Below are positions 1,066 through 37,549 of a stretch of 56,760 bases of DNA, piece after piece (the first letter of the stretch is position 1; each line of letters begins with the position of its first letter). The notes under the pieces were generated by a model, which had not been told where the DNA came from, searched no databases, and worked only from the letters and a program-made list of their open reading frames with translations. The DNA lies in contig CAZVAJ010000006.1 in the NCBI GenBank assembly GCA_964625085.1, forward strand, positions 2,812 through 59,571. The letters are read 5' to 3'. Source of the stretch: Candidatus Micrarchaeota archaeon. GTDB taxonomy: Archaea; B1Sed10-29; JAJSAI01. Position numbers and translations under genes: made by a program.

Positions 1066-1072
1066 TTTCCGC

Positions 1073-3268: not shown

Positions 3269-4213
3269 CTATGTCAGGGTGAACTCGCCGTGATCCCTGA
3301 ACTCAGGAGTTTCAGTTATTGGAGGGACCTCAATATGCTCAGGGGGCACGAAGGTTATTTGTTTAGAAAGCTTGCCGTTTTGGCAGTGATACTTTTCTGG
3401 CTCTTCTTCATTCCCTGAAGTGCTTCCGCTAGTAATGATTGCCTTGAACGTTCCATAATCATGATCATACTCTAGTACTACTTTTACGCCATCTCCTGCC
3501 AAAGAGTCAGTGTACCTTGTTACGATTACACTGTCTACCTCACTACACTTCGTGCCCTCGATGCTGTTTTTAGTTACTCCTTCCCAGATATTGCTTGTGT
3601 CGTCAACCCAGCCTTGCACATTAGTGTCCAGGCAGGCTGACAAGCGTTCCGTGGGGGTGAACGAGATGACCTGTTCTGTACTACTCTCAGGATCTTTTGT
3701 GTGCACTGACATTGCCTGCTTCACGTCCTGGTCTTTAAACCCTGAGGGTAAAACGCTTGCACAGTATTTCCCATTTTCCGCAATTATACTTATTACCTCT
3801 TTTCCTTGAAGGCTTTTACTAATCTCTTCTTTCTTGTCTAAAAAAGCTGTGTCATCCTGCAGTTCTTGTATTCCCAAAGAACTCCTAAGCGCTTCTACTC
3901 CTTTTAACACTGATCTATCCTTAAGGCTGCTCTTGAACGCAGGCCCGGTGAAGTAATATTGTAGGCCTGCTGCATCGCCGGTGTACTTAGAATTCACTTT
4001 TTCTTCCAACATTTCTTTGAGCACGCTTATCATGCCAACATCATAAGTGGCCTTGACTATCTTCGCTTGCACGTAATCCCGGGTGACAATGGAACTGAAA
4101 GAAAGTGATCTGGAAGCCCGAATATCATTCTGCACCATCATTGTCGCGAGAGAGATAGCAAGGATTATAAGGGTGGTGCCCACAAGGGGCGTGAAAAGAG
4201 AAAAGCCTTTCAT
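3269..4213 (-). CDS. secreted/anchored protein with class-III (prepilin-like) signal peptide
   Basis: Starting at ATG 4213 the N-terminus is 'MKGFSLFTPLVGTTLIILAISLATMMV' ([KR]G followed by a hydrophobic helix). AAAGGAG lies 10 nt upstream. An alternative start is ATG 4240, which forms an ATGA overlap with the stop of the giant gene. The remaining ~290 aa are Ser/Thr/Asp-rich and soluble. Confidence 0.6.
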   Translation of the reverse strand: MKGFSLFTPLVGTTLIILAISLATMMVQNDIRASRSLSFSSIVTRDYVQAKIVKATYDVGMISVLKEMLEEKVNSKYTGDAAGLQYYFTGPAFKSSLKDRSVLKGVEALRSSLGIQELQDDTAFLDKKEEISKSLQGKEVISIIAENGKYCASVLPSGFKDQDVKQAMSVHTKDPESSTEQVISFTPTERLSACLDTNVQGWVDDTSNIWEGVTKNSIEGTKCSEVDSVIVTRYTDSLAGDGVKVVLEYDHDYGTFKAIITSGSTSGNEEEPEKYHCQNGKLSKQITFVPPEHIEVPPITETPEFRDHGEFTLT

Positions 4214-4236
4214 CTTCAAGACGCTCCTTTCTTGCT

Positions 4237-7200
4237 TCATGATGTTGCTTGTGAGACATAATTGTCCGAATCCCTGTACCCTTGTCCAAACTCATCATTC
4301 TTGTCAGGAAGTTTTGCGCAATAGTATACCTGAAGACCGTGTGACATAACACCCATCCGCGGGAATTCTCCTTCTGGGCATGAGATGCACATTCCGTCGT
4401 TGCCTGTGGCGTGGCAGGCGTTTTCTCCTGAACACACCCCTGCAAATATTTCGTCATCGCATCTTCTGCTTGCTTCGGAGTAGCAGACATCTCCTGCATC
4501 ACAGTACACAACAGACTGTTTAACATTGGGCCAGTCACAGCATCCTGTGCCCCATACTCTGTGCTTTTCACATTTTCCAGAATACTTCTTTCCGCACACT
4601 TCTCCAGACTTGTCGCTACTGGGCTCTTCAGTCTCAGCGTCAGAAGGATATTCCAAGCCTATCCTGTAGTCAGTTGACCAAAGATGACCAACCCACCCTG
4701 GCGAGAACTCTTCTGTAGCAAGATCCGTGTAACCAATTGCTGCGGCAGGGAATTCAACCTCTTTTTCCCCTGCACTGTACTTTACTCTTATGAACCCGTC
4801 GGTCGTGAACATGTAGTCTCCTGAACCTTCTTCAGGCTTTGCAGTTACTGTAACGTACGCTACCATCCTTCCGTTCGTGTCAAGCTTGCACGTAGTTCCT
4901 TGACTGCACGTGTCTTCGTCTATCTTGTCTCCTGATCTTCCGTACGCGACCGCAGTAAGCTCTGATACCGGAATTGTTACTTCTTTCTTGCCTATTAGGT
5001 CGTACCCGAGATTGTACAGGGTTGTTGACCCCAGCTTGAAGTTAGACACTTCTGTCCCGGTGTCTGTCGTGTACTCTGTCGGGACTATGATCTTGCTCGG
5101 GTAAGAATTAAGCGCGAACACTGCTGTTGGGTCACTGCCTGCAGCCTGTGATGAACCGTCCCCTATGACTGTTTTTGGTTCAGGGTCAAAGAACCAGGTG
5201 CACTTCTTTCCTGGGAGCACTTTCGTGCTTCCAGGGGTACTGCTGGCCTGCAAGAAGCTTACCTTGCTCTTGCCAGTGTCAAGGTACTTGTATCCTTTTA
5301 GTCCCATGTTCTCCGCCAAGCTCTTGTCTATGCTTGACAGTTCACCGTCCACTGCTTTTATGCTGACCACTACTTTTCCTGGCCGGATTGCAGTAAGACC
5401 ATTGTTATCCAAGTCTATTCCAGAGTACGAGAAAGCAGCAGCCACAGGGGAAGTGCAGTCCCAGTACTCGTTGTCAATTGGCTTGAGCTTGAACGCGTAC
5501 GTTTTCTGTTCTCCTGTTACATAACCCTCTTCTATCACTTTTGTAAGGTCTGAGATGCTCGCGTCAGGGAACTTGAACACCAGCAGTTTTTCTCCTTCTC
5601 CGCTTACTTTCAAGTGCTCTTCATCTTCATTGTCGCCTGTTTGTGCGAAGGTTATCAGGCTATTAGCGTTTTCTTTCTTTTTGTCTCCAGGTACTGAAAT
5701 GTACACTTTTCCACGGCCTTCCCACAGGACCGCAGTGTTCTCGGGCAGCATCCATTCTGTGTTAAGGTTCACTCCCGCAAACCTTGCTTTGTAGTCAGAG
5801 GTGCTTGTGCTTTCTGGATCATACCTTTTGTTGCTGAAGCTTTCCGGCGAGTCAATCCAACCAATAATACTGCTGAAAGGAGTGCTTCCAGGTTCAGCAT
5901 ACTCTATCTTAAGGTCTTTAAGGCTTTCTAGTTTAAGCGTGTCAATAAGCAGGCTGTTAAAGTTTTCGCTGACTGTGTCCTCTGGAATGTTTTTGTTCAG
6001 CCAGACAGTGAACGTTCTTCTGGGCACTATTATCTTGTGTTCGCTGTCGTACTGCAAGGTACTCGTTCCCTCAAAGTATGTGTTAAGGTGGTCCAGCATT
6101 TCAGATAATTCTGCCGTACTTGTTCCTATCACATGAACTTTGTGGTTATCATCAACATACACTGCTGGCAGGGCTCCTGCAGGCATGCTTGTTGTTCCCA
6201 TGTGCTTTATCATATCCTGGCATGCTTTGTCTTCTGCTTTCTTGCACTCTTCTATTACCAGTTCATGCTCCCACTTGCTGCTTTTTCCTGCGTCCCTGCC
6301 TAATGAAATCCAGTCTTCAGGATACACGGTATCCTGAGGTATGCTCCAGGCGTTTTTCAGCATTTCTATTGCTTTTTCTTTTAACTTGTCCTGAGAGTCT
6401 GACACGGCTACTGTTATAAGCGTGTTGTACGTTTCAGGAGCCTCTTCCGCGAAACTACTTTCCAGATCAACAGGCAAGAACAGCGCAAACCTTTCCTGAA
6501 TATCATCATCAGTCAGTTCGGATAAGGACTGCGTGTTAAAGCACGCCACGCTCCAACTCTTATCACTTCCTGTTACTGGAAGTGTTTCGATGGTCAGTTC
6601 CCCGGTTCCTATTTCAGGCAGGCAGGACTTTTCTTCCACTTTGTCAGTGAAGCAGAGTTCGGCAAAAGGCTCTTTGTTTGGATCGCATGTTGCGTACAGC
6701 TCGTCAAGGCTTTTACTCTCTTTTACTTCTGCACCTTGAGAAGTGTAGTAGTCAATAATTTCTTGAGCAATGTTCTTGTACGCGTTAGTGAATTCTTCAG
6801 GCACCAGCGTGTAATAAACTGTGTTAAAGTTAGCCTGGTTATAAAGCAGAACCTGTCTTAGGTTGCACATGTGGGATGAGCAGTCGATCTTGTCAGAGTC
6901 AGTCATCTTAAAGTGTGGTTCAAAGTTCCCGTACTCTGTTGGCACTAAGGTTAGTCCTTCTGTACTTATTTCTTGCTCTTCTTTGCTCTCGAGCGTTAGC
7001 GGGACTTCAAGCTTTTTCTGTTTCTTTATTCCATTGCCTTGAAGCGTAAGATTGAGGGAGATGTTTCCTTTACGTGTTTCTCCAGGCAACAGTTCTTTGC
7101 TGAAGTCTATCTCAAACGTTACTGTGTCACTATACCCGTCATTGTCAGCATCTTCTGTGTAAGGTTCTGTTTTAAGAGCGCATGCCAACGGGTCTCCTTC

Positions 7201-10200
7201 TTCTCTTTCTAAGCAGTGCACTTCTTCTGAACTTCCCTCAAACGGTTCTGTGTACCACACGTCCAGCGAAAGCCCGGCACTTGTGCTAATCCCCACTCCT
7301 TGGTTCTTGCACTGCTGGATGAGCGGAACTTCCATTGAAACTTCTTCTGCCTCTTCTGTCGGCGTTGCCACACTTACTTTATTAAGGCCTTTTGGCAGGC
7401 TGCTTTCAGAACACGCGAGTACACTGATCTCTGAAGAAACACCTCCCTGTCTGAAGTACTGTTTTCCGTCATTGTCTGTCTTGCTTGCCACGGTCAGGGT
7501 GTACTCTCTTGGCCCTGTGAACAGTTCTTTGAAGGGGTATTCTCTGTACGTGTTTTCCACTGCAAAGTCCTGCTTGCACTGTGCTGCAAAGTTGGTTATA
7601 TCAGGGTACTCTTCTGATGGGTACTTGCAAAGGGTTTCTCTCTTCTCGTTAGAGATTGTTGCAGAAGAAACCTGCTGGGCAACAGGAAGAATCTGCTGGT
7701 TGAAAACAGCGGGATCAGTTGTTAACACGGTTGTTTTTATGAGATTACCTGTTCCTTCACCAAGGTACTCGGAACATCCTCCTATAATAGTGTCAGTAGT
7801 GTCAGTAACACAGACTTCTTTTCCGTTTGAGTCAACAACCTCCGCGTATAATATCAGCGCTTTCCCCTCCTTTTTGAGGTCGAGCAAGGACTGGTATCCG
7901 CTGCTGTCCGTGAGAATGACTGTTTTTATTGTATCTTCTCTGCCTTGCCCGAACAGTTCTTTCCCATAGTTCTGCCAGCAGTCAGCCAGGTTAAGCAAGA
8001 TATTATTATTTTCATCTGTTGCCAGGTCCTGGGCTGGCAGAGTGCACACATTCTTCCCGTTCGGGTCTGTTATCGTAACCTTGTCTACGTATTCTTCCAG
8101 GTACTCTGCAATGTTTTTGCCAGTGTTCCTGTCCATAATGCTTATTTTTATCTGGCCGGAAAATTCTGTTATTTCATCTTCGTCTAATATCTGAAGTTCT
8201 GGGTAAAGCGCGCCGCCTACTTCTCTGTAATACTCTCCAAGTTTCGTATCATCTGCTTTCAGTGTATAGTGCATGTTCCCGTAGAACTCAGGGGTTATGC
8301 TGACGCTGACGGTCATGTTTGTTAGTCTGCCCTTGACAAATTCTATGCTGTAGCTATTAGTATTCTCTTCTACGCTTAACACGGTTTCTGGGTTAGTGTC
8401 TTCTGCAGAGCCTTCTGTTGATATCTCTGCTGTTCCATCATACTCTAAGGAGATTTTTGGTGCTGTTGCGATGTCTCCCAGTGGGAAGATGTTAGCTTTT
8501 AGCACAGGTTTCTCAATAAACTGCACTGTTTTTGTGGCATCGTACGGTTTTTCCGTGACTCCTCCGTTTTCTATCCACATTTTCCAGCATATCTGTTTCT
8601 CAGAATCGCATTCCACTTCTTCTTCGTAGTCCACGTTTTCTGCAGTTACCTTAAGTGTGAAAGTCCTGTCTCCTACATTTATTGTTATGTCTCCTGTCCC
8701 GTCAGAAACAGCGTATAAAGGGAACACTACGCGCAGCCTGTCCCTGAATCTTATTCCTTGTTCTGTGGTGCTGCGGGAGTAATCTCCTTTCTTTACGCTG
8801 AACTCAGACCAGGTGTTTGCAATGCTTCCTGTTGTCTTGTCAATGTTTGATACGTCTAGGGAGGTTCCTTCAGGCATGGTCACCTGCACGCTTATCTTGT
8901 TATTCTCATCTTCCAGTAGCGCAGTAGAACCTGAAGCCTGCACTTTCAGCTGGTCAGTTAGCAAGCCTGTTCCATAATACCCTATTTCTAGCGCTACTTC
9001 TTTCGTTTTCCCTTCACTCATTATTATACTCCAAGGCGCTTCCTTAAAGCTTGAGATCTTAAACTCTGCAGCAGGCCCAAAGCTTGCTGTTTGTCCCAGC
9101 GTGACCGGATAGGGTCCTGCATTCCCGGTTATCATACCTCCTTCGCACGAGAGGTTTATTGCAAGCCCTGCCACATTGTTTCCTGTTGGTATGCGGGTGC
9201 CGGCAGGCAGGACAAGGTGAAGCGCTCCGTTGTAATACTCTGGCTGTCCAGCATATATTGTGCTGAATGTAAGGTGCCTGCCTCCTTTTACTACCTGCAC
9301 TTCCATCCAAGGCTCAGAACTGCAGGCTGCGCTGATGCTAGCGCTCTTTAGCTTTCTTCCTTTGTGCTCTTCGTTTACCCAAGTACCTACTATTATGCTA
9401 TCGCCAAGGTTCTGTGAAGCCTGGGTGTTAACAGGGTTTATGCTTATGCGTGTTTCGGTCTCAGCATACGCTTTCAGGCACACGTTGTCTATGCACTGTT
9501 CTTCAGGCAGGTTTTCTTTTGTCACGCGCAGGAGCACAGGGCTTGTTGCACTTGCAAAATTGTTATCGTCTTTTTTTATGTGTATGTTCGCGTCTCCTGG
9601 AAGCCAGCCTTTTCCTACTGCTATGAAAGTGTAAGAGGCGTCAGGGTTATTGAACGATATCATGGCACTTGTTTGGCTGTTGTCGTCTGATTTTTCCAGC
9701 GTGTATTCTGTTACTTTTCCAGCAGGGTATTCTGAATCAACCCGAGAGAACCGCACGTGATTCTCTGTTTCTCCAGCGTTTATGCTGAACTGCTCGCTTG
9801 AGTAGTATCCTGGAAGGGGAGAGATGGTGGTGCTTACAGTGAACTCTTGTTCAAAAGAAATGCTAGGCTTTTCTGCCGGAGGATAAGTTTGCCCTTCTGA
9901 TATTAGTACTGTGCGTTCCATGAGCCCGTTTTCCTCGTCGCAGACGAAGGTTCCTTTTTCCCAGTCAGACGTTTCGTAGTCTTCAGGGTTTTTGCATACT
10001 ATCCTGGAGAGCACGATGGTTAGAGACTTGAACGCGACACTGTCTGATCCTATGTTCAAGCTTATTACAGCTTCTGTGTTGTTTTCCAGGACATTGTTCA
10101 CTTTGAACGGCGCCCAAATTTCTACTGTCTCGCCGGTTAGTATACCGTAATCTTCAGGGTCATCACTCCTGCGGCAGTATGATAAGAAGCTTGCTGTTGT

Positions 10201-18027: not shown

Positions 18028-18082
18028 GGAAAAGAAAACGTTTAAAAACAACCCATCGCTTCTTATACCAAGGTGATGATGT

Positions 18083-18520
18083 ATGAAGGGTCAGGCTTTT
18101 AGTACTTTTCAGTTGATGATTGCGGCTGTGGTCGCGATAGCGATTCTTGGAATACTACTCGCGATAATAGGAGGAATATCTCCGCAGGTATCAAGTCCGA
18201 AGCACGCAATAGAAAACTCCTTGAGAGAAGCGTATTCTTCTCCTGGAATAATCAAGTCTTCTGCTCAGAAGGTGAGGTTCATTGAAGGAGATGCTTACCC
18301 TGGAAGCGCGTTCAGCGAATCTGTTGCAGGAGGGACACCTGTCCAGTTCGTCTGCAAGAGTGGAATAACAGGCTGCAATGCGGACGATCCTACAAAGCTG
18401 GTTGTTGATTCAACGTTCGATGCTAAAATATATGCTACGTGCGGGGACTCTCTTTGTTGTGTTGGTATAGGTACAAGCGACATTGACGCATCCGGCTCAG
18501 ATTGTAGCCATACTTCCTAA
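18083..18520 (+). CDS. prepilin-like protein (class-III signal peptide, KGQ type)
   Basis: The N-terminus is 'MKGQAFSTFQLMIAAVVAIAILGILLAII'. AGGTGA lies 6 nt upstream. Confidence 0.7.
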   Translation: MKGQAFSTFQLMIAAVVAIAILGILLAIIGGISPQVSSPKHAIENSLREAYSSPGIIKSSAQKVRFIEGDAYPGSAFSESVAGGTPVQFVCKSGITGCNADDPTKLVVDSTFDAKIYATCGDSLCCVGIGTSDIDASGSDCSHTS

Positions 18521-18539
18521 GTGCAGGAGGATAAATATT

Positions 18540-18683
18540 ATGAGGAAAGGACAGAACTGGACGCCGATTTACCTGGTGATAATAATAGCGATAGCAGTCA
18601 TACTCATCTTCACGATAATCAAGCCCATGTTCTCCCAGGCAGGGCAGTACGTGCAGCAGACCCTGCCCGCGCTCCTGCGCTGA
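18540..18683 (+). CDS. 47-aa mini-prepilin-like peptide
   Basis: 'MRKGQNWTPIYLVIIIAIAVILIFTIIKPMFSQAGQYVQQTLPALLR'. GGAGG lies 9 nt upstream of ATG 18540. The longest ORF (18483) overlaps the previous gene. Confidence 0.5.
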   Translation: MRKGQNWTPIYLVIIIAIAVILIFTIIKPMFSQAGQYVQQTLPALLR

Positions 18684-18720
18684 AAAAACCCTTTTATACT
18701 CTGCTAGTTTTACTCTAAGC

Positions 18721-19272
18721 ATGAGGCTCAGGGGACAGGAGGAAGCGCCGATAGAACTGCTCATAGGGGTTACTGTCCTAACGTTCGTGCTCATAATAGC
18801 ATACTACGTTTACGAGAACGCATCCTCCCAGCAGTGTGTTGAAAAAATAAAGGCCACTTCAGCAGAGCTGGCCAGCGTGATTTCCCAGGTGGCTCAAGGA
18901 GGTCCTGGCACCACAAGATACTTTTCAGCAGACTTCAGTTGCGAGGACACGAGCACCAGGATCTCTTACGTGATAATCGGAAAAGGAAACAAGCAAACCT
19001 GCAGGTCACTGTTCGGAAGACCAGACTGTTACATGCTGTACGTTTTCGGGAACGTGTCCGGAAACCTGCAGTTGGTGCACGCTGAAGTGCTGCAGAATGT
19101 TTTCAGCCCGCCCAAGATGGACGTGGGGGGCAGTACCCTGGAGCTAACATGCGATTACAACACCCTAATAAAAGGACAGTGTGGAAGGGATATGGAAATG
19201 CCTGCCAGGATTTACAGCATGAGGATTTCAAAACAGGCTGACGGAAGCGTGCTCATTTCAGGAGTTGATTAA
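18721..19272 (+). CDS. prepilin-like protein
   Basis: The N-terminus is 'MRLRGQEEAPIELLIGVTVLTFVLIIAYYV' (RGQ followed by a hydrophobic helix). Confidence 0.6.
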   Translation: MRLRGQEEAPIELLIGVTVLTFVLIIAYYVYENASSQQCVEKIKATSAELASVISQVAQGGPGTTRYFSADFSCEDTSTRISYVIIGKGNKQTCRSLFGRPDCYMLYVFGNVSGNLQLVHAEVLQNVFSPPKMDVGGSTLELTCDYNTLIKGQCGRDMEMPARIYSMRISKQADGSVLISGVD

Positions 19273-19274
19273 TC

Positions 19275-19784
19275 TTGAAAGGCCTTGCGATGTGGACTCT
19301 TTCAAAGATCGTGATGCTGGTGTTCCTTTTCACCATGATGACTTCGGTCCTGTACTACCAGCAGTGGATCAGCCAGCTTACCAGAGTAGAGCAGGCAAAG
19401 AGCATGACAAACCAGGTCAGGGAAGGGTTTAACCGGGCTCTCCTGCCAGAGTCTCTTGAGGCACGGATTCTGGTGCCCGTGTTCCAAGCTGCTTCAGGAG
19501 AACAATACACTATCAGAATAGAATCCAGCACGGTCAGCGGGCAAAAAGTGGTTTCAGTGCTGTTCGCTTACGGTGACCACGGCCAAGCGTTTAACGGCCC
19601 ATGGGATTCTGCAACTTCCTTGGCAGTAAGCAGTGATATCTCGCTTGACCCTGATCCTTTCACGATCAATTCTACTGCAAGGACAATAGAAATAAATAAA
19701 ACAGTAACACCTGCAGGCGTGCATGTGAGCCTGACAGGATGCAGGCTCATAACAAGCTCAGGAGCCTGCTTGCAAGCATCTTGA
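19275..19784 (+). CDS. prepilin-like / N-terminally anchored protein
   Basis: TTG start. The N-terminus is 'MKGLAMWTLSKIVMLVFLFTMMTSVLYY'. It follows the previous stop after 2 nt. Confidence 0.5.
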   Translation: MKGLAMWTLSKIVMLVFLFTMMTSVLYYQQWISQLTRVEQAKSMTNQVREGFNRALLPESLEARILVPVFQAASGEQYTIRIESSTVSGQKVVSVLFAYGDHGQAFNGPWDSATSLAVSSDISLDPDPFTINSTARTIEINKTVTPAGVHVSLTGCRLITSSGACLQAS

Positions 19785-19794
19785 GGGTGATGGG

Positions 19795-20223
19795 ATGAAG
19801 CGCAGGGGTTTTATAGGGCCGGTTGGAGATGATCTTCCGACAATCATAATAATAGTCATGGCGCTCACGCTGTTCTTCGCAGGGTTTGACTACGCGATGT
19901 CAGCATACAATGAGAAAAACAAGAGCCTTCACGCCCTAAAAGCAGGTCTGGACATAAGCAGGGCACTAATGAAGCAAAACGTGATCCCTGAAGATTCTTC
20001 TGGTCAAGTTAATCCGGACTATGAGGGGTACAAGCAAGCGGTGCTGCTTTCCCAGTCTTACGGCACTAGTTTTTCAGCAGTCTTAAAAGACGGTTCCTGC
20101 GAGCTGATTGACTGCAGGGCGCCAGAAGGCAGGAGCGTTTCAGTGTTCTCTTTTCTTACTGCTGCAAAAAGCAGCGGAGGAAGCATAAACTTGAAGACCT
20201 TGTGCGTTTGCGTTTGGGAGTGA
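19795..20223 (+). CDS. prepilin-like protein
   Basis: The N-terminus is 'MKRRGFIGPVGDDLPTIIIIVMALTLFFAGF'. GAGGGTGA lies upstream. Confidence 0.55.
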   Translation: MKRRGFIGPVGDDLPTIIIIVMALTLFFAGFDYAMSAYNEKNKSLHALKAGLDISRALMKQNVIPEDSSGQVNPDYEGYKQAVLLSQSYGTSFSAVLKDGSCELIDCRAPEGRSVSVFSFLTAAKSSGGSINLKTLCVCVWE

Positions 20224-20228
20224 TTCAT

Positions 20229-20717
20229 GTGAAAAAAGGTCAGGCTGCTGTCATGGACGGGCTTATTCTGGTGCTTGTGATTTCAGGAGCAGTCACTATG
20301 CTCGTCCTTGTTTCAGGAATGTACGCTGCAAGCACAAGGAACCAGGTGCTTGGGTCTTACTCGTACGAGTACGCTGGTAACGCTCTTGTGGCCCTGCACT
20401 ATGCCAGAGACAGTGACGGAAACTGGTTCTGGCTGCAGCTTGAAGAAAAAAGAGAGTCCTCTGACCCTAGCGGGGACACAGAAGATTATCTGAAAGCCAA
20501 TCTTGATTTAATTGAAAAGATCAGTGCAAGCTCGCCTGCTGGCACGAATCTGTTGTGCTTTTCCAGCTCAGGCTCGTTTTCAGACTGCTATAACCTGAAC
20601 AATAACGGAGAAAGTTTAAGCCCGTTGCCTGATCCTGTGTGCGGTCCAGGATCTAACGCTTACTCTTACACCAGTTTTATTGGCGATGAAAAAATTTCAT
20701 TTATCCTGTGCTACTAG
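20229..20717 (+). CDS. prepilin-like protein (KGQ type)
   Basis: Starting at GTG 20229 the N-terminus is '(M)KKGQAAVMDGLILVLVISGAVTMLVLV'. The longest ORF (20202) overlaps the previous gene. Confidence 0.6.
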   Translation: MKKGQAAVMDGLILVLVISGAVTMLVLVSGMYAASTRNQVLGSYSYEYAGNALVALHYARDSDGNWFWLQLEEKRESSDPSGDTEDYLKANLDLIEKISASSPAGTNLLCFSSSGSFSDCYNLNNNGESLSPLPDPVCGPGSNAYSYTSFIGDEKISFILCY

Positions 20718-23700
20718 CCTTGCTTTCTTTTTCTCGCGAGCTCTCTTGCTATCGCAAGGCTCGCGATTATCATCAGCACGAACACTATTCCCGCATTGCC
20801 TTCTGGAACTGACGGCAGCGAGAGCAGAGGATTCTGCTGAGTAGTAACAGGGCCCTTGGGCGGATTGACATCAGGCGCGCCCCACGGTGGCTTTGACGGG
20901 GTCATGAGCCCAAGCCCATTAGCGCCAAGTGTAGTGAACTGGGGGTTAAGCGGGAAATAGAACTCGTTGGTCATGCCTATCTTTCCATTGCTTGAAGTGT
21001 ACCCTCCGTTAGGCCCGTTCATCCACATCATGGGAACGCTTCCGTGGCCTATGACATTCCCGTTCCCGTCTGTTATCACGAGCCTGGGTACTCCGTCAGG
21101 CCCTGCTTCTATTGTGGCAAAGTACGTTTTCCCGTCCTCTCCTGTTAGCTGGTACCCTGGCTTGTCGGAGTAAGGCGATTCTTCGCTAGTGACCCACTTT
21201 TCTACTGTGTACGTTTGGGTTACTGGATTACCATCGTCTCCGGTGTAAGTGAAAGTGAACACGTTGTTCCCGTTTTCGTCTTTGTGGAAGTCAGCGACCT
21301 CGTTGTCTGTGCCGCCGAACGTGGGCATGCACATTGTTTCTTCCTTTGTTTTCCACTGCGTCATGATATCCTCATCAGCGCTTTCTTTGAACTTCCACAC
21401 AAGCTTCCAGCCAGGAGTTCCGTCAGGCATCGTGCAGTTCTCTGTATCAAAGTAGCCTGCGGCATCGTCAAACATTGTCAGGTCAGAGCTGAGGTCTTGT
21501 TCTAATCCTGAAAGCACTCCGCTCAGGTACACGTGGTACACGCCTGAAAAGTCTGTTTTTTCGTCCTGTTTGAACCCTGGCCTGATCATGCCGCTGGAGA
21601 ACACTATGCTTCCTTCTGCGCCCAAGCTTGTTTTGCAGACTGTCTTGCCTTCTGACACCACTTCTATAGTGCCCATGCTGTCTCTCTTGAACTTTATGTG
21701 CGAGTTCGGATAGTGCATGGTTCCTCCGAACGTTGCGCCTTCACAGTCCGGGATTCCAGCATAGAAAGTGGCAATAGTCTCGTTAGTTCCGGGCTTGAAC
21801 CAGAGGATCGTGTCCTTTGCGTTCACTACCTGAAGGTTTCCGAACGCGCTTGCTATGATCATGTCCTTGTACTCCTGGCTGAGGTGCTCGTTGTCCAGTG
21901 CCAGGATATCTTTTGACTCCAGCGCGCTCCTGAAGCAGTCATTGTAAACATGCACTTCCCCTCTCGGGTTGATGTCCAGGAGCAGCGGGTCTTCATCGTT
22001 CTTTCTCACTTCAATGACCTTGCTCACAAGGTACGCGTACCCTTTGTCCATGTCGACCCCTAGGCTTAATAGCTGTGGCGCTGGGCCTTCTAGCACGGGC
22101 TTGCCGTCAGGCCCAAGGAAGTAGTACCCGCTCTCCTGAGAGCACTTGAAGTTTCCGTTAGGATCTTCGTAGCACAGGCTTATCGGACAGTCTTTTGGTA
22201 TGAACCACCTGACGTTCCCTCCATGCATGTACACATCATAAATCCTGTCCGCAAGAATGCTTGCCCTGCCCACATTACCCTCTGTCGGAATTGCCTGGCC
22301 GACAAGATGCATTCTTTGAACCTGGTATCCTGCGTAGTTCTCCCAGTCAGAGATCATTTTTCCTGCTTCAGGAGACATGCCTTGTATCAGTGACTTAACC
22401 TGAGAGATCCCCTGGTTTACAGGGTTCTCTGATTCTGCTGCCTGCTGCAGGTCCTGTGCTGTCGGAATCTTTTGTATTGCAGCAAGCTCTGCGTTCGGCT
22501 CATAGCAGTCCATCAGCTTTTCTATTGCTTCTTTTTGAACGTCTATTGCTTTCATTTCAGCGTACATTGACGCGAAATCAAGCGCTATCTCGCCTATAAC
22601 TGCCGGAGGGAATACCTCAGAAGCTGCTTGGAACCCTCTTGCCCCTATCATCAGCCAGAGCGCTCCTGTCTTTGCAGCGCCAATTTCCCCAGCGCCAGCC
22701 ACATCACCCACTATTGGAGTAAATTCTTTTTCTGATTCTACTCTGTTTTCCCAGCCTGCTCCAGCATACTTCTTCGCTACTTCGGTGCAGAGTTTTGCTT
22801 TGTTCTCGTACGCTATTTTCGGGTCTATTAGCACTCCCTCTGTCAGCGCGTCCCAGGAATCAGAGCCAGCACTTACAAATTGCCCGCTTCCTACTTGTGC
22901 AAACCACCAGATGGTAACTGCGGTTCCTGTAAAGGAAAGAGCACCTGTGGGGAATATTGTCCGCGGGACTCCGACTATCCAAGCATAGTTTAGGGCCATG
23001 GCGCCTATTGCTCTTGTGGCTCCTGCAGTCATTTTCAATGTCTGCTTGAACGCGTTATTGTCTTTTTCAAAGATCCCTCCTTGAGTTAGCACGTTATGAG
23101 AGTAAAGCCAGATAGAGGTGTAGCCAGGCATTACTCTCTGTGCATCTGGATCTTCCCATGCAAGATAGCCTACTGAGCCAGGGTGCACTGAGTAGAAGTA
23201 GAACGCTTCTCCAAACGGTTTGATGATGTTGGTTGGTTTTCCTCCTCCTGCAGTGTCAAAGTTCACCTGGTCCACGATGTACACGTGTTTCCCAAGATGC
23301 CTTGCTTTTTGAGTGAGCCTGTTCGGGAGCCCGTAAGTGTTTGGGTCGACTCTCGTAGTGAGAAAACCGAAAGCAACGCTCATTGCAGTATTCTGTTCAG
23401 GCTTTCTAGGGGTGTAAACGCTGTTGGCTTCTATTTCAGTACCAACATAACAGTTTGTATCTTCTCCCCTGACTTTTTTGAGCTTGTTGCACTCTTCTTT
23501 TGAAATGTCATAGTCTACTGCATCAATCCTGAAGTATGGGTCAATCAAGTACTCATTATACCCAGAGGTTGCTACGTAGGAGATGAGCAGGCTCGCCATT
23601 GCCAGCCTCAATGCCCTTCCTTTCAGTCCAGCAATCCGCGCGCCAAGCCGTATAGCAGAGGATATCTTTTTAATCCTTTCCCCTTCTTCTATCCCCTCTA

Positions 23701-25201
23701 AACCAAGTTTGTATGCTTCGCTTCCCTTGCCCCATTCCATAACTTTATAAGATGCTGCCCGCAGTTCTTGCAGTTTTTCTATTTTCTTTTGGTTTTCTAG
23801 AAGTTCTGTGCTATATTTTACTATTGCGTCAGCATTATCTGTTTTCTCAGCAGCGTACAATCCCTCTCTAAGTATCTTCTGTTCTTTCTTAAGTTTACTG
23901 ATTTCTTTTGGTAAATCATCCACGTTTTTGGCAGCCTGTTCAATCGCGTCTGCGCCAACAAGTTGCCTCCGGCCCCATCCTTTTATACTCTGCCAGCGTC
24001 TTCCCCACCAGCCAATTTGTTCCGCTGCTTCGGAAGCTTGCCTTCCTCCTGTTTCTGCATCCTGGATTATTTTTGAAATGTCTTTTATCGTGTCATCAGT
24101 CAGAGATTGCTGAAAGTTCTTATTTCTCAGACTATTCTTTATTCCTTCTTTTACTCTTGTTGTCCACTTGGTTCCCTCTTTGACCCCTTCTTCCCCAATC
24201 TCCTTAGTTCCCTGCTGTCCTATGTCTGATGCACCGCTTTTTTTGAAAGAGGCCAGTAAGGACGCGCTAGCCACGATCAAGTACCAGTCATCAAAGCTTC
24301 TCCATAACTGCATCCATTTTATGAACTTTGAGTATGTTTCTGGTATCAGATACATTTCAGCCTGCGAGACAGGAGCTAAAGAAAGGTACAAGTAGTCTGA
24401 AGTTACCTTGTTGTAAGGGATCTGCAGGGATTTCATCAGCTTGCTTATCTTGTCTGACTGTTCCACGCCCACTGCTTGAAGCATCTGGACCTTTTCAGTT
24501 TCAGTGTAATCAGAAGGGTCAAACGAGTCAGGATCGATCTCTCCAACCACTGACTCAATTCCTTGCCTTATCTTGGGATTGCCTTTTATTATTCTTCTCA
24601 CGCTTGTTTTGTTTTTCATAAGGGCATCCTTAAACTCTACGAGCGCGTTGTTCTGTTCTCTTAAGCTTTCTGCACCTTTGCTGCTTTCCCAGCCTGAATT
24701 GCACGTGTCCTCGTCTCCACAGAACGCTGTTTCCCCTGTCCTAATAGCGTACGACATCTTTCCGTCGTACACCAGGTTCGTGAGGTGACATGCTTCTGCA
24801 GGAGAGGCCACCTGATGCCTCTGGACATCGTACAAGAGTATCTTCCCGTTCGGGCCCATCACAAAATTGTTTTTGGCGAAAGCAGTGCCAGGGACTTCTG
24901 ACTGTTCTTGCTCATCATACGCTGCTTCCTGCGCTCCTTTAGCATAGTCTCCGTACGCGTCTATCTGAGGCAGGTTGTTTATCACGTGTCGTCTTAGAGC
25001 GCGATAGTCAGAATAGTTGAACTTGTCTATTCCCACTTCTCCAGCGCACTTATCCTCGTCTGTTGTTTCTTTTGCAGGCTTGTTTTCTTTTGGTTCCCAG
25101 AAAGTGGATGCTTTCATCGCAGATTTTTCAGGCTGTGCGTACGTGAACGGAGAAAACAATGAAACAGTGATTATCACGGCAAGCAATATTTCTGACTTCA
25201 T
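20714..25201 (-). CDS. large (1495 aa) surface protein with Sec-type signal peptide and sortase-type C-terminal sorting signal
   Basis: The N-terminus is 'MKSEILLAVIITVSLFSPFTYAQ'. There are internal hydrophobic segments and a ~230-aa K/E-rich predicted coiled-coil stretch. The C-terminus is 'VPEGNAGIVFVLMIIASLAIARELARKRKQG'. No recognisable catalytic motifs. Confidence 0.85.
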   Translation of the reverse strand: MKSEILLAVIITVSLFSPFTYAQPEKSAMKASTFWEPKENKPAKETTDEDKCAGEVGIDKFNYSDYRALRRHVINNLPQIDAYGDYAKGAQEAAYDEQEQSEVPGTAFAKNNFVMGPNGKILLYDVQRHQVASPAEACHLTNLVYDGKMSYAIRTGETAFCGDEDTCNSGWESSKGAESLREQNNALVEFKDALMKNKTSVRRIIKGNPKIRQGIESVVGEIDPDSFDPSDYTETEKVQMLQAVGVEQSDKISKLMKSLQIPYNKVTSDYLYLSLAPVSQAEMYLIPETYSKFIKWMQLWRSFDDWYLIVASASLLASFKKSGASDIGQQGTKEIGEEGVKEGTKWTTRVKEGIKNSLRNKNFQQSLTDDTIKDISKIIQDAETGGRQASEAAEQIGWWGRRWQSIKGWGRRQLVGADAIEQAAKNVDDLPKEISKLKKEQKILREGLYAAEKTDNADAIVKYSTELLENQKKIEKLQELRAASYKVMEWGKGSEAYKLGLEGIEEGERIKKISSAIRLGARIAGLKGRALRLAMASLLISYVATSGYNEYLIDPYFRIDAVDYDISKEECNKLKKVRGEDTNCYVGTEIEANSVYTPRKPEQNTAMSVAFGFLTTRVDPNTYGLPNRLTQKARHLGKHVYIVDQVNFDTAGGGKPTNIIKPFGEAFYFYSVHPGSVGYLAWEDPDAQRVMPGYTSIWLYSHNVLTQGGIFEKDNNAFKQTLKMTAGATRAIGAMALNYAWIVGVPRTIFPTGALSFTGTAVTIWWFAQVGSGQFVSAGSDSWDALTEGVLIDPKIAYENKAKLCTEVAKKYAGAGWENRVESEKEFTPIVGDVAGAGEIGAAKTGALWLMIGARGFQAASEVFPPAVIGEIALDFASMYAEMKAIDVQKEAIEKLMDCYEPNAELAAIQKIPTAQDLQQAAESENPVNQGISQVKSLIQGMSPEAGKMISDWENYAGYQVQRMHLVGQAIPTEGNVGRASILADRIYDVYMHGGNVRWFIPKDCPISLCYEDPNGNFKCSQESGYYFLGPDGKPVLEGPAPQLLSLGVDMDKGYAYLVSKVIEVRKNDEDPLLLDINPRGEVHVYNDCFRSALESKDILALDNEHLSQEYKDMIIASAFGNLQVVNAKDTILWFKPGTNETIATFYAGIPDCEGATFGGTMHYPNSHIKFKRDSMGTIEVVSEGKTVCKTSLGAEGSIVFSSGMIRPGFKQDEKTDFSGVYHVYLSGVLSGLEQDLSSDLTMFDDAAGYFDTENCTMPDGTPGWKLVWKFKESADEDIMTQWKTKEETMCMPTFGGTDNEVADFHKDENGNNVFTFTYTGDDGNPVTQTYTVEKWVTSEESPYSDKPGYQLTGEDGKTYFATIEAGPDGVPRLVITDGNGNVIGHGSVPMMWMNGPNGGYTSSNGKIGMTNEFYFPLNPQFTTLGANGLGLMTPSKPPWGAPDVNPPKGPVTTQQNPLLSLPSVPEGNAGIVFVLMIIASLAIARELARKRKQG
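20717..20809 (-). other. putative archaeosortase recognition signal (VPEG motif + TM helix + basic cluster)
   Basis: The last 31 aa are 'VPEG-NAGIVFVLMIIASLAIA-RELARKRKQG'. This is the tripartite layout of PEP-CTERM/PGF-CTERM-type signals. Confidence 0.5.
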
Positions 25202-26022
25202 CTTCTGCGCCTCCTGTGTTTTATGAAAGCAGCAAGGACCACAACTATGGCTGCCAGTACTATCAGGACAGGAGCCAGCTGTTCTAGCAGAAGCCCTGCT
25301 TTCTCTTCAAAGCCTATTTCGCGGTACTCTTTTATCAGTCCGGTGTAGAACACGAGGTCTGCCTTCTTTTCGACCATTGCGTCTATCAAGAACTTTTGGC
25401 CTGTTTTCGGGCCACAGACCATTTCAGTAAATCCTTCTTCAGTGCTCACGTTGCAGTTTTCAGGGTTGTATATCTCGTCAGGAAGTGCTACCGGGTCTAT
25501 GACAAGCCTCAGGTTTAGATCATAGGGGTATTCAACGGTTTTGTTGATAGTGCTTATGTTTGCTTGTCCTTTTTTGATCACGTCCGCGGTAAAGGTTATG
25601 TTCCCAGCTTCCTTCAGGTTCGCGCTTGAGACACATATGCTTAGCATGTACTTGCACTCATGGCAGCTTTCATCTTCTTCAGGGCAGTTGACCTGGCACT
25701 GGAAAGTGGAAAAGCAGTGGATGGGGGTCACGAACTCTACTGGAACATCCAGGACCATGAAAGGCCTCCAGCACGCGTACCCTCCTTCTACTGGATCGCA
25801 TGATGCGTTCAGTGCTTCCTGGTCTACTGGGCAGGAAAACTTTCCATCAGGGCCCTGGGTGCAGTTCTCAAACTTCTGAGGCAGCTGATAGCAGTACTGC
25901 TTTCCGTCTATGGTCCTGCAGTATTCTGCCCCGTGCGCAAGAGGCAGGGATAATGCAGCAAGCGCTAGCGAGAATGCCAGCATGCTCCAAACAATCCTTC
26001 CTGCGTTCATTTTCACTACCAT
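25198..26022 (-). CDS. Cys-rich secreted protein with C-terminal TM anchor and poly-Arg tail
   Basis: Signal peptide 'WSMLAFSLALAALSLPLAHG/AEYC'. About 17 Cys and six N-x-S/T sequons. The C-terminus is 'APVLIVLAAIVVVLAAFIKHRRRRR'. ATGA overlap with the 1495-aa gene. Confidence 0.7.
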   Translation of the reverse strand: MVVKMNAGRIVWSMLAFSLALAALSLPLAHGAEYCRTIDGKQYCYQLPQKFENCTQGPDGKFSCPVDQEALNASCDPVEGGYACWRPFMVLDVPVEFVTPIHCFSTFQCQVNCPEEDESCHECKYMLSICVSSANLKEAGNITFTADVIKKGQANISTINKTVEYPYDLNLRLVIDPVALPDEIYNPENCNVSTEEGFTEMVCGPKTGQKFLIDAMVEKKADLVFYTGLIKEYREIGFEEKAGLLLEQLAPVLIVLAAIVVVLAAFIKHRRRRR

Positions 26023-34731: not shown

Positions 34732-35627
34732 ATCCCTACTGGCTTGCTTCCTTCTATCATGAACATGAATCCTGCTGCCATGACTGGTATTAGGATATAA
34801 ACGAATATTGCGAACAGCACGTTCATGGGTATTCCTATGTTTGTCATTGACCCCATTACTGTTACCATTATCACGAATAGTATGGGGCCTGCTACGAATA
34901 GGGTTATGTATATTTCGGCCATTAGGCTGAGCGTGTCAAGGTACTGTGACTCAACAATCCTCCTTTTTTCCATGAGCTCTTTTGCTTTTCCTACAAGGTA
35001 CTGTCTTAGGTCTCCGCCTGAACGGATTATGGTCACTATTCCCCATAATAAATCCTTGAAGCTTGGGCTTGGGGTCTTGCCTGCGGCTTCTGCTAGGGCG
35101 GTTGTTACGTCATAACCGAATACTTCAATGTTTCTCGCAATTCTCCTGCATTCTTTTGCGACTTCTCCGTACTCTTCAAAGTTTCCCATGAGCTTGAAAA
35201 CAAGCTGGATGGGAACGCCTGTGCCTGCCACGGTTGCCATGTGAGTGACCGCGTACGGCAGGTTAACCTCAATGTTTCTTTTCAGGTTGTCTTTTGCGTA
35301 GCTTGGGTACACTAGGAAGAATACTATCACGCTGCCTGTTGAAATAAATGAGAATAGCATGGACATTAGGAATGCGGCGGATGGAGCAAGCTGTATTACA
35401 TGCAGGAACAGGAAGTTGAACGCCAAGAAAAAGAAGGGTACTGAAAGAACGCAGGTTAACAGCATGCTTGACAGGTATTCTTCAGGGGTTATGTGTAGTC
35501 CTGCTTTTTTGAGGGCTGGTTTTAGGTCTGTTCTGTACTTTTTTGGGAAAAACGTTTCGATGATTCTGCTTCTTGTGAAGATTCGGTACGCAATGACTCT
35601 GTATGATCGGTTTAGGAAGGGCATCAT
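34728..35627 (-). CDS. FlaJ/TadC-type platform protein, first half
   Basis: T2SSF-like domain 'LPYAVTHMATVAGTGVPIQLVFKLMGNFEEYGEVAKECRRIARNIEVFGYDVTTALAEAAGKTPSPSFKDLLWGIVTIIRSGGDLRQYL' plus TM helices. ATGA overlap with the ATPase gene. Confidence 0.7.
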   Translation of the reverse strand: MMPFLNRSYRVIAYRIFTRSRIIETFFPKKYRTDLKPALKKAGLHITPEEYLSSMLLTCVLSVPFFFLAFNFLFLHVIQLAPSAAFLMSMLFSFISTGSVIVFFLVYPSYAKDNLKRNIEVNLPYAVTHMATVAGTGVPIQLVFKLMGNFEEYGEVAKECRRIARNIEVFGYDVTTALAEAAGKTPSPSFKDLLWGIVTIIRSGGDLRQYLVGKAKELMEKRRIVESQYLDTLSLMAEIYITLFVAGPILFVIMVTVMGSMTNIGIPMNVLFAIFVYILIPVMAAGFMFMIEGSKPVGM

Positions 35628-37549
35628 TTTTTCAATTTCCCTCCATACACTTCTTCGAGTACTGATATGGGGTCTTTGTAGTATCTTGCGACTATATTAC
35701 CGACTTCTTTATAGTGCCTGATTCCTTTTTTCCTCATCCAGTTTAGTATGTCCTCTCTTCTTTTCAGTTCTTCCCACACGCTCTTTTCAGGAATGCCCTT
35801 CTCTTCTATTATGCTGTTTATCACGTGGCTTTGGTCTGATGAGAACTCGTAGTAGTCTTTTGACGGGACCCACTTGAACAGCGTGTTTGTTATCAGTTTT
35901 CCTGTTTTGAAGTCTACCCCTACAACTTCTATTAGTGATTTTATTCTTCTCACGTCAACTCCCTTTATGCGTGAGTGCTGGAGTATGATTATTATGTCAA
36001 GGTGTTGAAGCAGTCCTGGAGAAAGGTTTATGGGTGGCGTGATCAGCCTGTTGACTACTGCTTCGAAGGATTCTGCGTGCAGGGTCGCCATTCCAGGGTG
36101 GCCGGTTGCCATTCCTTGGAACAGCACGTATGCTTCTTTACCCCTCACCTCTCCCACGATGATTTCTTCAGGCCTTTCTCTTAACGCGGCTCTCAGCAGG
36201 TCAAACATGCTTACAGATCCTCTTTCTGTAGGGCCATAGCCCGGTCTTGCTACTTTTGCTATCCAGTGTTCGTGAGGGAGCCTGAGCTCTGGAGTGTCTT
36301 CTATGCTTACTATTTTTGTTTCAGGGTGTAGGAAGAGGCACAGCGCGTTAAGCAGGCTTGTTTTTCCTGTTGCGGTCCCTCCGGACACAAGAATTGAGTT
36401 TCTGAATTCTATTGACAGCCAGAGGTATGCTCCAATGGTTGCTGGCAGGGTGCCGTAGTTCATGAGGTCTACTACTGTTAGGGGATCTTTGGTGAACTTT
36501 CTTATCGTGAAAGTGCTTCCTCTCATTGCAATGTCTCCGCCTGCAGAGAACGTGGCCTGAACCCTGCTTCCGTCAGGAAGTGCTCCGTTCATCAGGGGTT
36601 CTGCGATTGAGATGTGTTTCCCGCACCTTTGGGCCAGTTTAATTGTGAATGAGTTTAGTTCGTCAGGATCAGTGAACATTATATTGGTTTTCAGGGATCC
36701 GTACTTTCTGTGGAACACGTATATGGGGATGTTGACCCCGTCGCAGGAAATATCTTCTATGTTCTCGTCCTGCATTAACGGTTCTATCTTTTCCAGTCCA
36801 AGAAAGTCCCTGTACACGTAGTATAGTATTTTATTGTACGTGACTTCAGTCAGCCGTATGTCATAGTCTGAGATAATCTGGTCAAGTTTGTCTTTTAGGT
36901 ATCCCTTCACTTTTGACGGGTCTTTTATTTCCATTAGGTTTATGTCAAGGAGGTCTATTACCAGGTCCTTTATTCTCGTCAGGTTTTCTGCTTCTTCTTT
37001 TGTTAGGGGTGGTTCTAGTACATAGTAGTTCAGTTCATGTGCTTTCTCGTTCCATTTTATTACAGCATAAGCGTACGGTTCTATGAGGGGGTATCTCACG
37101 TCTATTGTTTTCAGTTCAGGAGGCTTCCATTGTGAGGGTATCACCCTCCTTTTCTCTTCTTTCGGGAGTTTGTGTTCTTTGAAGGGCATGCCCCTGACTT
37201 TCTGAGCGCCTTCTGTTTCTTCTTCTCTTTTTATCTCTTCAGTTACTTTGGGAAACTCTATCACTACAGGCTTTTTGGATTCTGGTTTCTTGCTTTTAGT
37301 CTTTTTCACGCCGCCTATTTTCTCTTTTATGTCCTCCACTCTTTTTTCTTCTATTTCCTCTCCTGTTATCCTCTGAAGTTCTTTTAGGTAGTCTGTTTCA
37401 GATACTGTTTCTGCCTCTCCTTTTGCCCATTCAGGATACTCTTCTTCAACTCCCACTTTGGCCATTTTTACCCATTTGCCTACTTTCTCCTCTTCTGGCG
37501 CCGGCCACTCGCGCAATAGTTTCCTGAGTTTGTTTTTAGACAGAGGCAC
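35624..37549 (-). CDS. FlaI-like archaeal type-IV-filament assembly ATPase with K/E-rich N-terminal extension
   Basis: ATPase motifs: Walker A 'VSGGTATGKTSLLNAL', 'IVSIEDTPELRLPHEHW', Walker B 'IIVGEVRGKEA' and 'GHPGMATLHAES'. The FlaI-type N-domain 'YPLIEPYAYAVIKWNEKAHELNYYVLEPPLTKEE' is present. GTG start with a G-run 5 nt upstream. Confidence 0.9.
   Translation of the reverse strand: MPLSKNKLRKLLREWPAPEEEKVGKWVKMAKVGVEEEYPEWAKGEAETVSETDYLKELQRITGEEIEEKRVEDIKEKIGGVKKTKSKKPESKKPVVIEFPKVTEEIKREEETEGAQKVRGMPFKEHKLPKEEKRRVIPSQWKPPELKTIDVRYPLIEPYAYAVIKWNEKAHELNYYVLEPPLTKEEAENLTRIKDLVIDLLDINLMEIKDPSKVKGYLKDKLDQIISDYDIRLTEVTYNKILYYVYRDFLGLEKIEPLMQDENIEDISCDGVNIPIYVFHRKYGSLKTNIMFTDPDELNSFTIKLAQRCGKHISIAEPLMNGALPDGSRVQATFSAGGDIAMRGSTFTIRKFTKDPLTVVDLMNYGTLPATIGAYLWLSIEFRNSILVSGGTATGKTSLLNALCLFLHPETKIVSIEDTPELRLPHEHWIAKVARPGYGPTERGSVSMFDLLRAALRERPEEIIVGEVRGKEAYVLFQGMATGHPGMATLHAESFEAVVNRLITPPINLSPGLLQHLDIIIILQHSRIKGVDVRRIKSLIEVVGVDFKTGKLITNTLFKWVPSKDYYEFSSDQSHVINSIIEEKGIPEKSVWEELKRREDILNWMRKKGIRHYKEVGNIVARYYKDPISVLEEVYGGKLKK

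Follow-up and report, generated by a model that had tools for sequence, protein, structure and literature searches.

The window analyzed here (56,760 nucleotides from the Candidatus Micrarchaeota assembly GCA_964625085.1) contains a gene for a large secreted protein of 1495 residues, termed here the LPxxP protein after a motif close to its C-terminus, and, several kilobases past the end of that gene on the same strand, a gene for a small protein of the exosortase/archaeosortase superfamily (Table 1). We present evidence that the C-terminal tail of the former is probably a sorting signal that is processed by the latter. An earlier note on this DNA, made from the sequence alone, had proposed such a relationship on the basis of a short motif, a hydrophobic helix and a basic cluster at the C-terminus of the 1495-residue protein, and the presence of these three parts is confirmed by translation and by a codon-level check.

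A secreted protein with a tripartite C-terminal tail

The C-terminal end of the LPxxP protein reads QNPLLSLPSVPEGNAGIVFVLMIIASLAIARELARKRKQG and is followed directly by the stop codon, with each part of the tail verified codon by codon. A hydropathy scan detects only two hydrophobic segments in the entire protein, namely the N-terminal signal peptide and the C-terminal helix, the latter comprising 16 residues within a 19-residue window of mean Kyte-Doolittle hydropathy 2.13 and being conserved in all relatives of the protein. Among the open reading frames (ORFs) of the window with at least 60 residues, just two combine a C-terminal helix with a basic cluster: the LPxxP protein and its 274-residue Cys-rich neighbor.

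Neither the LPxxP protein nor six of its relatives matched any Pfam family, a sequence search of the PDB with the LPxxP protein returned no relative, and an Rfam scan of the window was empty. We modeled the last 628 residues with AlphaFold2 using a 26-sequence alignment. The model displays a beta-rich domain with a predicted local distance difference test score (pLDDT) of 80-95, followed by a disordered stretch (pLDDT <50) and the terminal helix; the predicted beta-rich fold accounts for the ~390 C-terminal residues ahead of the linker, and the disordered stretch holds both the linker and the LPxxP motif directly before the helix. A Foldseek comparison of this model with the PDB produced TM-scores of at most 0.13 and root-mean-square deviations of 15-28 Å, that is, no usable structural relative. 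As judged from the sequence and the model, the protein is an uncharacterized, large, secreted and predominantly beta-rich protein, for which an S-layer-like or adhesin role is plausible.

Table 1. Positions of the features discussed, numbered along the window
Feature	Positions	Strand	Remarks
LPxxP-protein gene (1495 residues), secreted	20714-25201	-	No Pfam domain
N-terminal Sec-type signal peptide MKSEILLAVIITVSLFSPFTYA	25136-25201	-	From hydropathy
Pro/Gly/Thr-rich variable linker SKPPWGAPDVNPPKGPVTTQQNPLLS	20819-20896	-	Last residues form the semi-conserved lead-in h-A-(A/Q)
Signature motif L-P-S-V-P	20804-20818	-	Residues 1462-1466; family consensus [LI]-P-x-x-P
Short spacer E-G-N	20795-20803	-	
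Hydrophobic transmembrane helix AGIVFVLMIIASLAIA	20747-20794	-	16 residues; includes invariant Phe F1474
Basic tail RELARKRKQG	20717-20746	-	Predicted cytoplasmic; includes invariant R1486
Stop codon of LPxxP-protein gene	20714-20716	-	
Mini-archaeosortase	12708-13259	-	183-residue ORF, or 177 residues from the ATG at 13241; TIGR04178, PF09721
Sortase Cys (DLCAG)	13011-13013	-	
Sortase Arg (NPVRI)	12885-12887	-	
Sortase His (LVHDL)	12825-12827	-	
Type-IV-pilus-like operon	13223-20717	+	Between sortase and target gene; same order in all related loci
T2SSE ATPase	13223-15547	+	
TadC-like polytopic protein	15531-17597	+	
Six small proteins with class-III (pilin-type) N-termini	17623-20717	+	
Giant protein (2810 residues)	4237-12669	-	Directly downstream of sortase, same strand
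323-residue protein with pilin-type N-terminus (KGFSLFTPLVGT...)	3269-4240	-	Downstream of giant protein
Cys-rich secreted protein (274 residues)	25198-26022	-	Just upstream of target gene

Conservation of the tail across the protein family

A word-indexed homologue search with the full 1495-residue protein recovered only the protein itself. An exhaustive HMMER search with the last 1200 residues as query against 1.84 billion representative proteins returned 32 relatives at 25-36% identity, mostly 1300-1800 residues long. The same tripartite tail is present in all 30 relatives with an intact C-terminus, yielding 31 tails with that of the window protein; the only two relatives without it, P0019 and P0034, look truncated or frameshifted. 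The conservation of the motif among orthologues, on which the earlier note had made its proposal depend, is hence borne out within the family. Furthermore, a metagenome scan with the conserved block preceding the tail, derived from 11 closer tails, returned 18 loci that likewise keep [LI]PxxP, the spacer, the helix with its invariant Phe and an Arg 12 residues further on.

The aligned tails are invariant at the L/I and at both prolines of [LI]-P-x-x-P, at a single Phe inside the helix and at a single Arg, which always lies exactly 12 residues after that Phe. Across 44 distinct tails the first position of the motif is L in 41 and I in three, each of the two prolines is present in all 44, and one fixed register accommodates 44/44; an Ala two residues ahead of the motif Leu is nearly invariant (39/44). 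The full signature can accordingly be written as hA(A/Q)-L-P-x-x-P, followed by a spacer of 2-5 residues and a helix of ~16 residues. The spacer region of the same tails is semi-conserved and often acidic, with E in 14, D in 10 and G in 24 of them, and the tail of the closest orthologue (GCA_024274695.1) reads LPSIPPG, with PPG in place of PEG. Consequently, the signature that had been named in the earlier note, 'VPEG' or PEG, has to be replaced by L/I-P-x-x-P, which starts three residues upstream of PEG.

As a measure of background, the protein bodies of the family, 37,825 residues in total, contain [LI]PxxP seven times. The 25 residues ahead of the motif are unconserved and Pro-rich (17% Pro versus 3.5% in the body). 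In the window protein the motif begins 34 residues from the end; in the relatives the invariant Arg is mostly positioned 7-18 residues from the end (range 4-32), with the motif starting ~20 residues before it. Their basic tails comprise the invariant Arg and then an R/K-rich stretch such as RIRYRK, with the window protein displaying R-ELA-RKRK at this place. Signal peptides are found in 19 of the 22 full-length members, the remaining three having mis-called or truncated starts, and those of the family share a conserved F[ST]PFAYA end.

We then ran a hidden Markov model (HMM) of the tail over the 1519 ORFs of the window and the related loci (numbered from L001), in which members of the family score 40-62 bits and the next best ORF 8.3 bits. 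Small ORFs with an LPxxP or IPxxP in L010, L011, L015 and L016 were considered as further carriers and rejected as spurious, being antisense inside real genes.

Comparison of the tail with known sorting signals

The window tail and ten relatives' tails were compared with the models of NCBIfam release 20 and Pfam at E<=10. None of these tails reached the cut-off of any CTERM model (PGF-, PEF-, VPXXXP-, PIP-, VPEID-, PEP-, Loki-, Heimdall-CTERM and others), with the window tail scoring 13.7 bits against VPEID-CTERM (cut-off 33) and 10.2 bits against PEF-CTERM (cut-off 23) through its helix part only. The signature region had no match in either collection in any of the eleven tails. In the literature available to our searches we found no description of an LPxxP tail paired with a mini-archaeosortase.

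Haft has listed eight attributes of C-terminal sorting signals along with an alternative for dedicated one-to-one systems, for which the attribute of several carriers per genome is waived (bioRxiv 10.1101/2023.06.07.544157). The tail under consideration displays attributes 1 and 3-6, i.e. position near the end, signature, helix, basic cluster and signal peptide. Attributes 2, 7 and 8 are not seen in the data at hand. Instead of several carriers per genome (attribute 2), the window and 25 loci (~330 kb) have precisely one carrier each; instead of otherwise unrelated carriers (attribute 7), those found share homology over hundreds of residues, and a tail-only profile search for unrelated carriers in a 5.8-billion-protein collection returned nothing at E<=10; and instead of homologues that lack or swap the signal (attribute 8), the signal is the same wherever the C-terminus of a homologue is intact. 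With regard to the one-to-one alternative, a sortase lies downstream on the same strand at a narrow range of distances in all nine loci that extend far enough, as detailed below. This pattern matches Haft's description of dedicated one-to-one sorting systems.

An unnamed clade of mini-archaeosortases

A distance of 7,455 bp separates the sortase ORF from the end of the target gene, in agreement with the 7.5 kb given in the earlier note for the archaeosortase-family protein. The sortase scores 38.7 bits against TIGR04178 (cut-off 23) and 27.1 bits against PF09721 (cut-off 25.7), and five further members of its clade show TIGR04178/PF09721-type signature scores of 38-48 bits. Hydropathy indicates multiple hydrophobic segments, i.e. 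a polytopic protein. The Cys, Arg and His regarded as the catalytic triad of the exosortase/archaeosortase family (bioRxiv 10.1101/2023.06.07.544157) are embedded in the motifs LC[AT]G, NxxR[IV] and sH[DN], and none of the three residues varies among 14 homologues with identities as low as 28%. Two stretches of the sortase are strongly basic, TPDRNRKER and the C-terminal RVWKRAGILVRKAYKY; both should be cytoplasmic, and because of the hydropathy profile, the Arg/Lys distribution and the positive-inside rule, the Cys, Arg and His should then be located at the outer face of the membrane.

No cut-off of the named subfamilies ArtA-ArtF, pacearchaeosortase and XrtA-XrtY is reached by the window sortase or by the five clade members. 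The window sortase scores 35.8 bits against XrtX (cut-off 170), 34 against ArtD (125), 28.7 against ArtB (150) and 17.3 against pacearchaeosortase (80), and the corresponding ranges for the clade are 35.8-42.5 for XrtX, 22.6-37.4 for ArtD, ~29 for ArtB, up to 29 for ArtF (cut-off 150) and 17-27 for pacearchaeosortase. A PDB sequence search with the sortase was empty. As classified by these profile scores, the enzyme is a member of an unnamed mini-archaeosortase clade in DPANN-type archaea.

At one locus, L002, the sortase is flanked by genes of toxin-antitoxin or abortive-infection type, situated between the sortase and the ATPase as well as just downstream (L002:2152-4092 and 4830-6106), which precomputed Pfam assignments identify as NTP_transf_2, DUF4258, DUF2283 and AbiEii.

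A conserved gene cluster linking sortase and target

By following the sortase homologues we arrived at a syntenic contig from an uncultured archaeon (L001) and at more distant loci, including L005 and L006 from the DPANN lineage Candidatus Iainarchaeum, in which the sortase is found beside the same ATPase, TadC and pilin genes. An HMM of the sortase detected the enzyme 8.2-8.5 kb past the tail and on the same strand in all seven metagenome loci that reach that far (7/7); when the window and L001 are included, the count for loci that extend far enough is 9/9, with same-strand distances of 7.5-8.5 kb between tail and sortase. The expectation of the earlier note that the signal be accompanied by an archaeosortase thus holds at every testable locus, with Cys, Arg and His intact.

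The order of genes in the cluster is fixed across loci: a small membrane protein, a Cys-rich secreted protein, the LPxxP protein, the pilus-like genes, the sortase and a giant protein, which together extend over ~23 kb (3269-26552 in the window; also L001 and L008-L025). The pilus-like genes, which are on the strand opposite to the LPxxP gene, comprise six pilin-like genes, a TadC-like gene and a T2SSE ATPase gene; the label 'pilin-like' is based on an N-terminal K/R-G-Q/F plus hydrophobic pattern in the sequence and has no Pfam match. A further pilin-like protein of 220-330 residues is encoded behind the giant protein in the window and in L001 but, in the distant loci, ahead of it, between the giant protein and the sortase. 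Relative to the window, the target proteins of the other loci are 23-37% identical and the sortases 39-68%, and the linkage is therefore long-standing rather than a reflection of the recent descent of one contig.

We also noted that the window contains three T2SSE-type ATPase genes within 25 kb, at 13223-15547 (+), 30167-31849 (-) and 35624-37549 (-), all three having genes for TadC-like membrane proteins and small pilin-like ORFs in their vicinity, which amounts to an unusual density of type-IV-filament loci. The N-terminus of the 560-residue ATPase has a Cys-rich stretch that appears ferredoxin-like by eye. In distant loci a conserved gene of ~308 codons is situated between the LPxxP and pilin genes (L009:10355-11284, L010:10351-11274, L015:10354-11277) but has no counterpart at this position in the window or in L001; its product may resemble deoxyhypusine synthase.

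Neighboring surface proteins

The 2810-residue giant protein has a signal-anchor N-terminus and CarboxypepD_reg/Ig-like (immunoglobulin-like) domains and, as the earlier note had pointed out, no C-terminal helix. Its first ~65 residues are near-invariant across loci, with the rest diverging to ~35% identity, and follow the pattern ..YY.[VI]ED[RK]WF[DN]LLDW...[KH][KGH][IVL]P[VIA]YK[LIV]VDP[IL]EK[HR]GIPSLPVF plus a helix. This stretch is found at 12475-12669 (-) in the window, at L001:10585-10780 and L003:1802-2000, and ~0.6-1 kb after the sortase in L009, L010, L011, L015, L017, L018 and L021. The 'IPSLP' directly before the N-terminal helix resembles the LPxxP tag. We do not regard it as a sortase site, since in a signal-anchor protein it would be on the cytoplasmic side, opposite to the catalytic residues of the sortase; the N-terminal stretch may instead be a docking or assembly signal.

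The Cys-rich 274-residue protein has, as was also correctly described in the earlier note, a C-terminal helix followed by HRRRRR and no obvious PEG motif; it has no LPxxP either and provides an internal contrast as a plain membrane anchor. A Cys-rich secreted protein of 224-274 residues with a C-terminal helix and a basic tail always precedes the LPxxP gene (L009:5530-6207, L010:5643-6320, L015:5448-6122), and the counterparts in the distant loci have no motif and a longer cytoplasmic tail ending in a conserved RE[KR]RYGR. We considered this neighbor as a second substrate and rejected it on account of the missing signature and of the long, different cytoplasmic tail in its positional counterparts.

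Elsewhere in the window, three tandem genes for family-1/4 glycosyltransferases at 53232-56661 (-), recognized through precomputed Pfam assignments on an identical short contig (L026), may be relevant to the glycosylation of surface proteins. Four tandem small ORFs of 97-122 residues at 45-1366 (-) each have an N-terminal hydrophobic segment, and in three of them this is followed by a Lys/Glu-rich tail with a ...P.IY/YP..I motif. The four appear to be paralogues that make up one family of small membrane proteins.

Relationship to known systems

The closest analogy is with ArtA/PGF-CTERM, the pair of archaeosortase A and the S-layer glycoprotein in Haloferax volcanii. The enzymes belong to the same superfamily (TIGR04178/PF09721) with conserved Cys, Arg and His, both substrates combine a signal peptide with a low-complexity linker and, towards the C-terminus, a short signature ahead of a helix and basic tail, and by analogy the same outcome, removal of the helix and anchoring at the surface, would be expected. 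The two systems differ in that the enzyme is here a 'mini' version of ~177 residues that fails the ArtA-F models, in that ArtA has many scattered targets whereas here a single target is encoded in the same cluster, and in that the present system occurs in a DPANN-type genome in linkage with a pilus operon. The substrate moreover does not match the PGF-CTERM model.

ArtB/VPXXXP-CTERM and ArtD/PIP-CTERM likewise combine small sortases (model lengths 150-156) with proline-rich signatures, and for the window sortase ArtD and ArtB rank high among the archaeal subfamilies, yet with scores far below their cut-offs; the tail matches neither the VPXXXP-CTERM nor the PIP-CTERM model at E<=10, and its proline spacing is P-x-x-P as opposed to P-x-x-x-P. 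Pacearchaeosortase (NF033505, NCBIfam) is also a small DPANN enzyme of the archaeosortase family, with scores that indicate a different subfamily. Exosortase X (NF046081) is the top-scoring named subfamily, with a similar length (a 168-position model) and a full-length alignment; given that the scores are 33-42 bits against a cut-off of 170 and that XrtX is bacterial, this is a likeness at the superfamily level only.

Finally, the Gram-positive sortase A/LPXTG system has a signature that likewise starts with L-P, a spacer before the helix and a basic tail, and Gram-positive sortases build pili, which offers an analogy for the pilus linkage observed here. It differs in the unrelated fold of the enzyme, in the T-G that LPxxP does not have, and in the host, which is here an archaeon without peptidoglycan. 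The LPXTG_anchor cut-off (15.9) was reached by the tail of one relative (16.6 bits) through the helix and basic tail (RRRR) only and not through LPxxP.

Proposed function and alternative explanations

Based on the above sequence comparisons, we propose that the C-terminal 35-40 residues of this family are, on balance, probably a previously unmodeled tripartite sorting signal ('LPxxP-CTERM'), with the mini-archaeosortase of the cluster as its dedicated processing enzyme. Because Haft's attributes 1 and 3-6 are found together with the one-to-one alternative, a dedicated archaeosortase/target pair, rather than a general sorting signal, is the best reading as far as the data reach. The precursor, which has a signal peptide, would be exported through Sec and held in the membrane by its C-terminal helix, and by the positive-inside rule its Arg/Lys tail would point into the cytoplasm. 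LPxxP, as part of a flexible Pro-rich linker, would then be exposed at the outer membrane face. Hydropathy and charge suggest that the sortase presents its residues at the same face, the Cys at the start of a helix after an outside loop, the Arg in the outer part of the next helix and the His in an outside loop. The sortase could cleave at or beside LPxxP through a thioacyl intermediate, and, by analogy with ArtA/PGF-CTERM of Haloferax volcanii, the new C-terminus might be transferred to a membrane lipid; the helix and basic tail would be removed and the protein would stay on the cell surface. That a type-IV-pilus-like operon and the gene of a giant surface protein are in fixed linkage with the pair suggests a single cell-surface or attachment module of these DPANN-type archaea, of which the mature protein would form a part.

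As to the central claim of the earlier note, that the tail is a new signal and its bearer a substrate of the nearby archaeosortase, it thus retains the support of a conserved architecture, the failure of known CTERM models to match it above cut-off and the 9/9 linkage; it has to be amended with respect to the signature and is tempered by the presence of the tail on a single family, and it is from the architecture and synteny that we infer cleavage and lipid anchoring by the mini-archaeosortase.

The alternative that deserves the most attention is that the tail is a permanent transmembrane anchor, with LPxxP serving as a hinge or interaction motif at the membrane surface and the sortase processing something else or having another role. 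We regard it as unlikely, though several observations that weigh against a sorting signal speak for it. The tag is confined to a single protein family in the window and loci, where a conserved juxtamembrane motif of that family would look alike. The motifs of PGF-CTERM and PEP-CTERM abut the helix (bioRxiv 10.1101/2023.06.07.544157), whereas LPxxP is separated from it by the 2-5 residue, often acidic spacer. In P0033 ~33 residues, starting acidic (GRESQIEEFEQFEHESELEEESSDTATTTPTGK), are inserted between LPSTP and the helix, making it the only family member with the motif far from the membrane. The invariant Phe of the helix and the Arg that follows could also reflect helix-helix contacts in a stable membrane complex. 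Furthermore, sortase and target are not adjacent but separated by the pilus operon, the immediate operon partner of the sortase is the giant and not the LPxxP protein, and, as the cluster is inherited as a block, synteny cannot tell which of its members the sortase acts on. Against a permanent anchor, no other protein of the cluster combines an outside motif with a helix and basic tail, the type of arrangement targeted by exosortase-family enzymes, the giant being without the C-terminal helix and the Cys-rich protein without the motif. In addition, an invariant signature that comes after an unconserved Pro-rich linker and is succeeded by a helix and an Arg cluster follows the textbook pattern of sorting signals (bioRxiv 10.1101/2023.06.07.544157).

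If the tail is indeed a sorting signal, the sortase could conceivably be a transpeptidase that joins the LPxxP protein covalently to the pilin-like subunits or the giant, and not to lipid, giving rise to a composite appendage. The invariable linkage of sortase, pilus operon, giant and LPxxP protein would agree with this, as would the position of the distant Iainarchaeum sortases next to the same ATPase/TadC/pilin genes, and the literature has yet to settle whether archaeosortases are one-step transpeptidases (bioRxiv 10.1101/2023.06.07.544157). We consider it improbable, as it has no precedent within the exosortase/archaeosortase family, no conserved acceptor motif was identified in support of it, and the argument is one of gene linkage only. 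More improbable still is the specific proposal that the mini-archaeosortase is the assembly enzyme of a composite DPANN surface appendage, coupling the LPxxP protein covalently to these partners; if true, it would be an archaeal counterpart, with an unrelated fold, of the sortase-built pili of Gram-positive bacteria and might serve host attachment. Very improbable, lastly, is cleavage of the tail by a different protease encoded elsewhere, for example of the rhomboid or CPBP/Rce1 type, with an incidental archaeosortase linkage: other CTERM signals are processed by the unrelated rhombosortase and myxosortases (bioRxiv 10.1101/2023.06.07.544157) and our view of the source genome is that of the window, but in the conserved cluster no gene for an intramembrane protease of such a type was found, and a sortase-family enzyme with intact catalytic residues is always encoded there.

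Significance

Each exosortase/archaeosortase subfamily comes with its own signal, and to our knowledge ArtA is the only one of these systems that has been studied experimentally. The probable LPxxP-CTERM signal and its unnamed mini-archaeosortase clade add a further pair to this class, and, in light of the one-to-one pairing, which would leave no doubt about the substrate, and of the small size of the enzyme, would be a convenient one for studying how archaeosortases recognize and cleave their targets. Many metagenome-assembled genomes would be better annotated with two new HMMs, one for the signal and one for the sortase. Members of this DPANN-type lineage are thought to live attached to other cells, and the cluster marks a conserved surface module in these organisms, in which a large protein with a predicted beta-rich fold is found together with a type-IV-pilus-like machine, a sortase and the giant protein with Ig-like domains.

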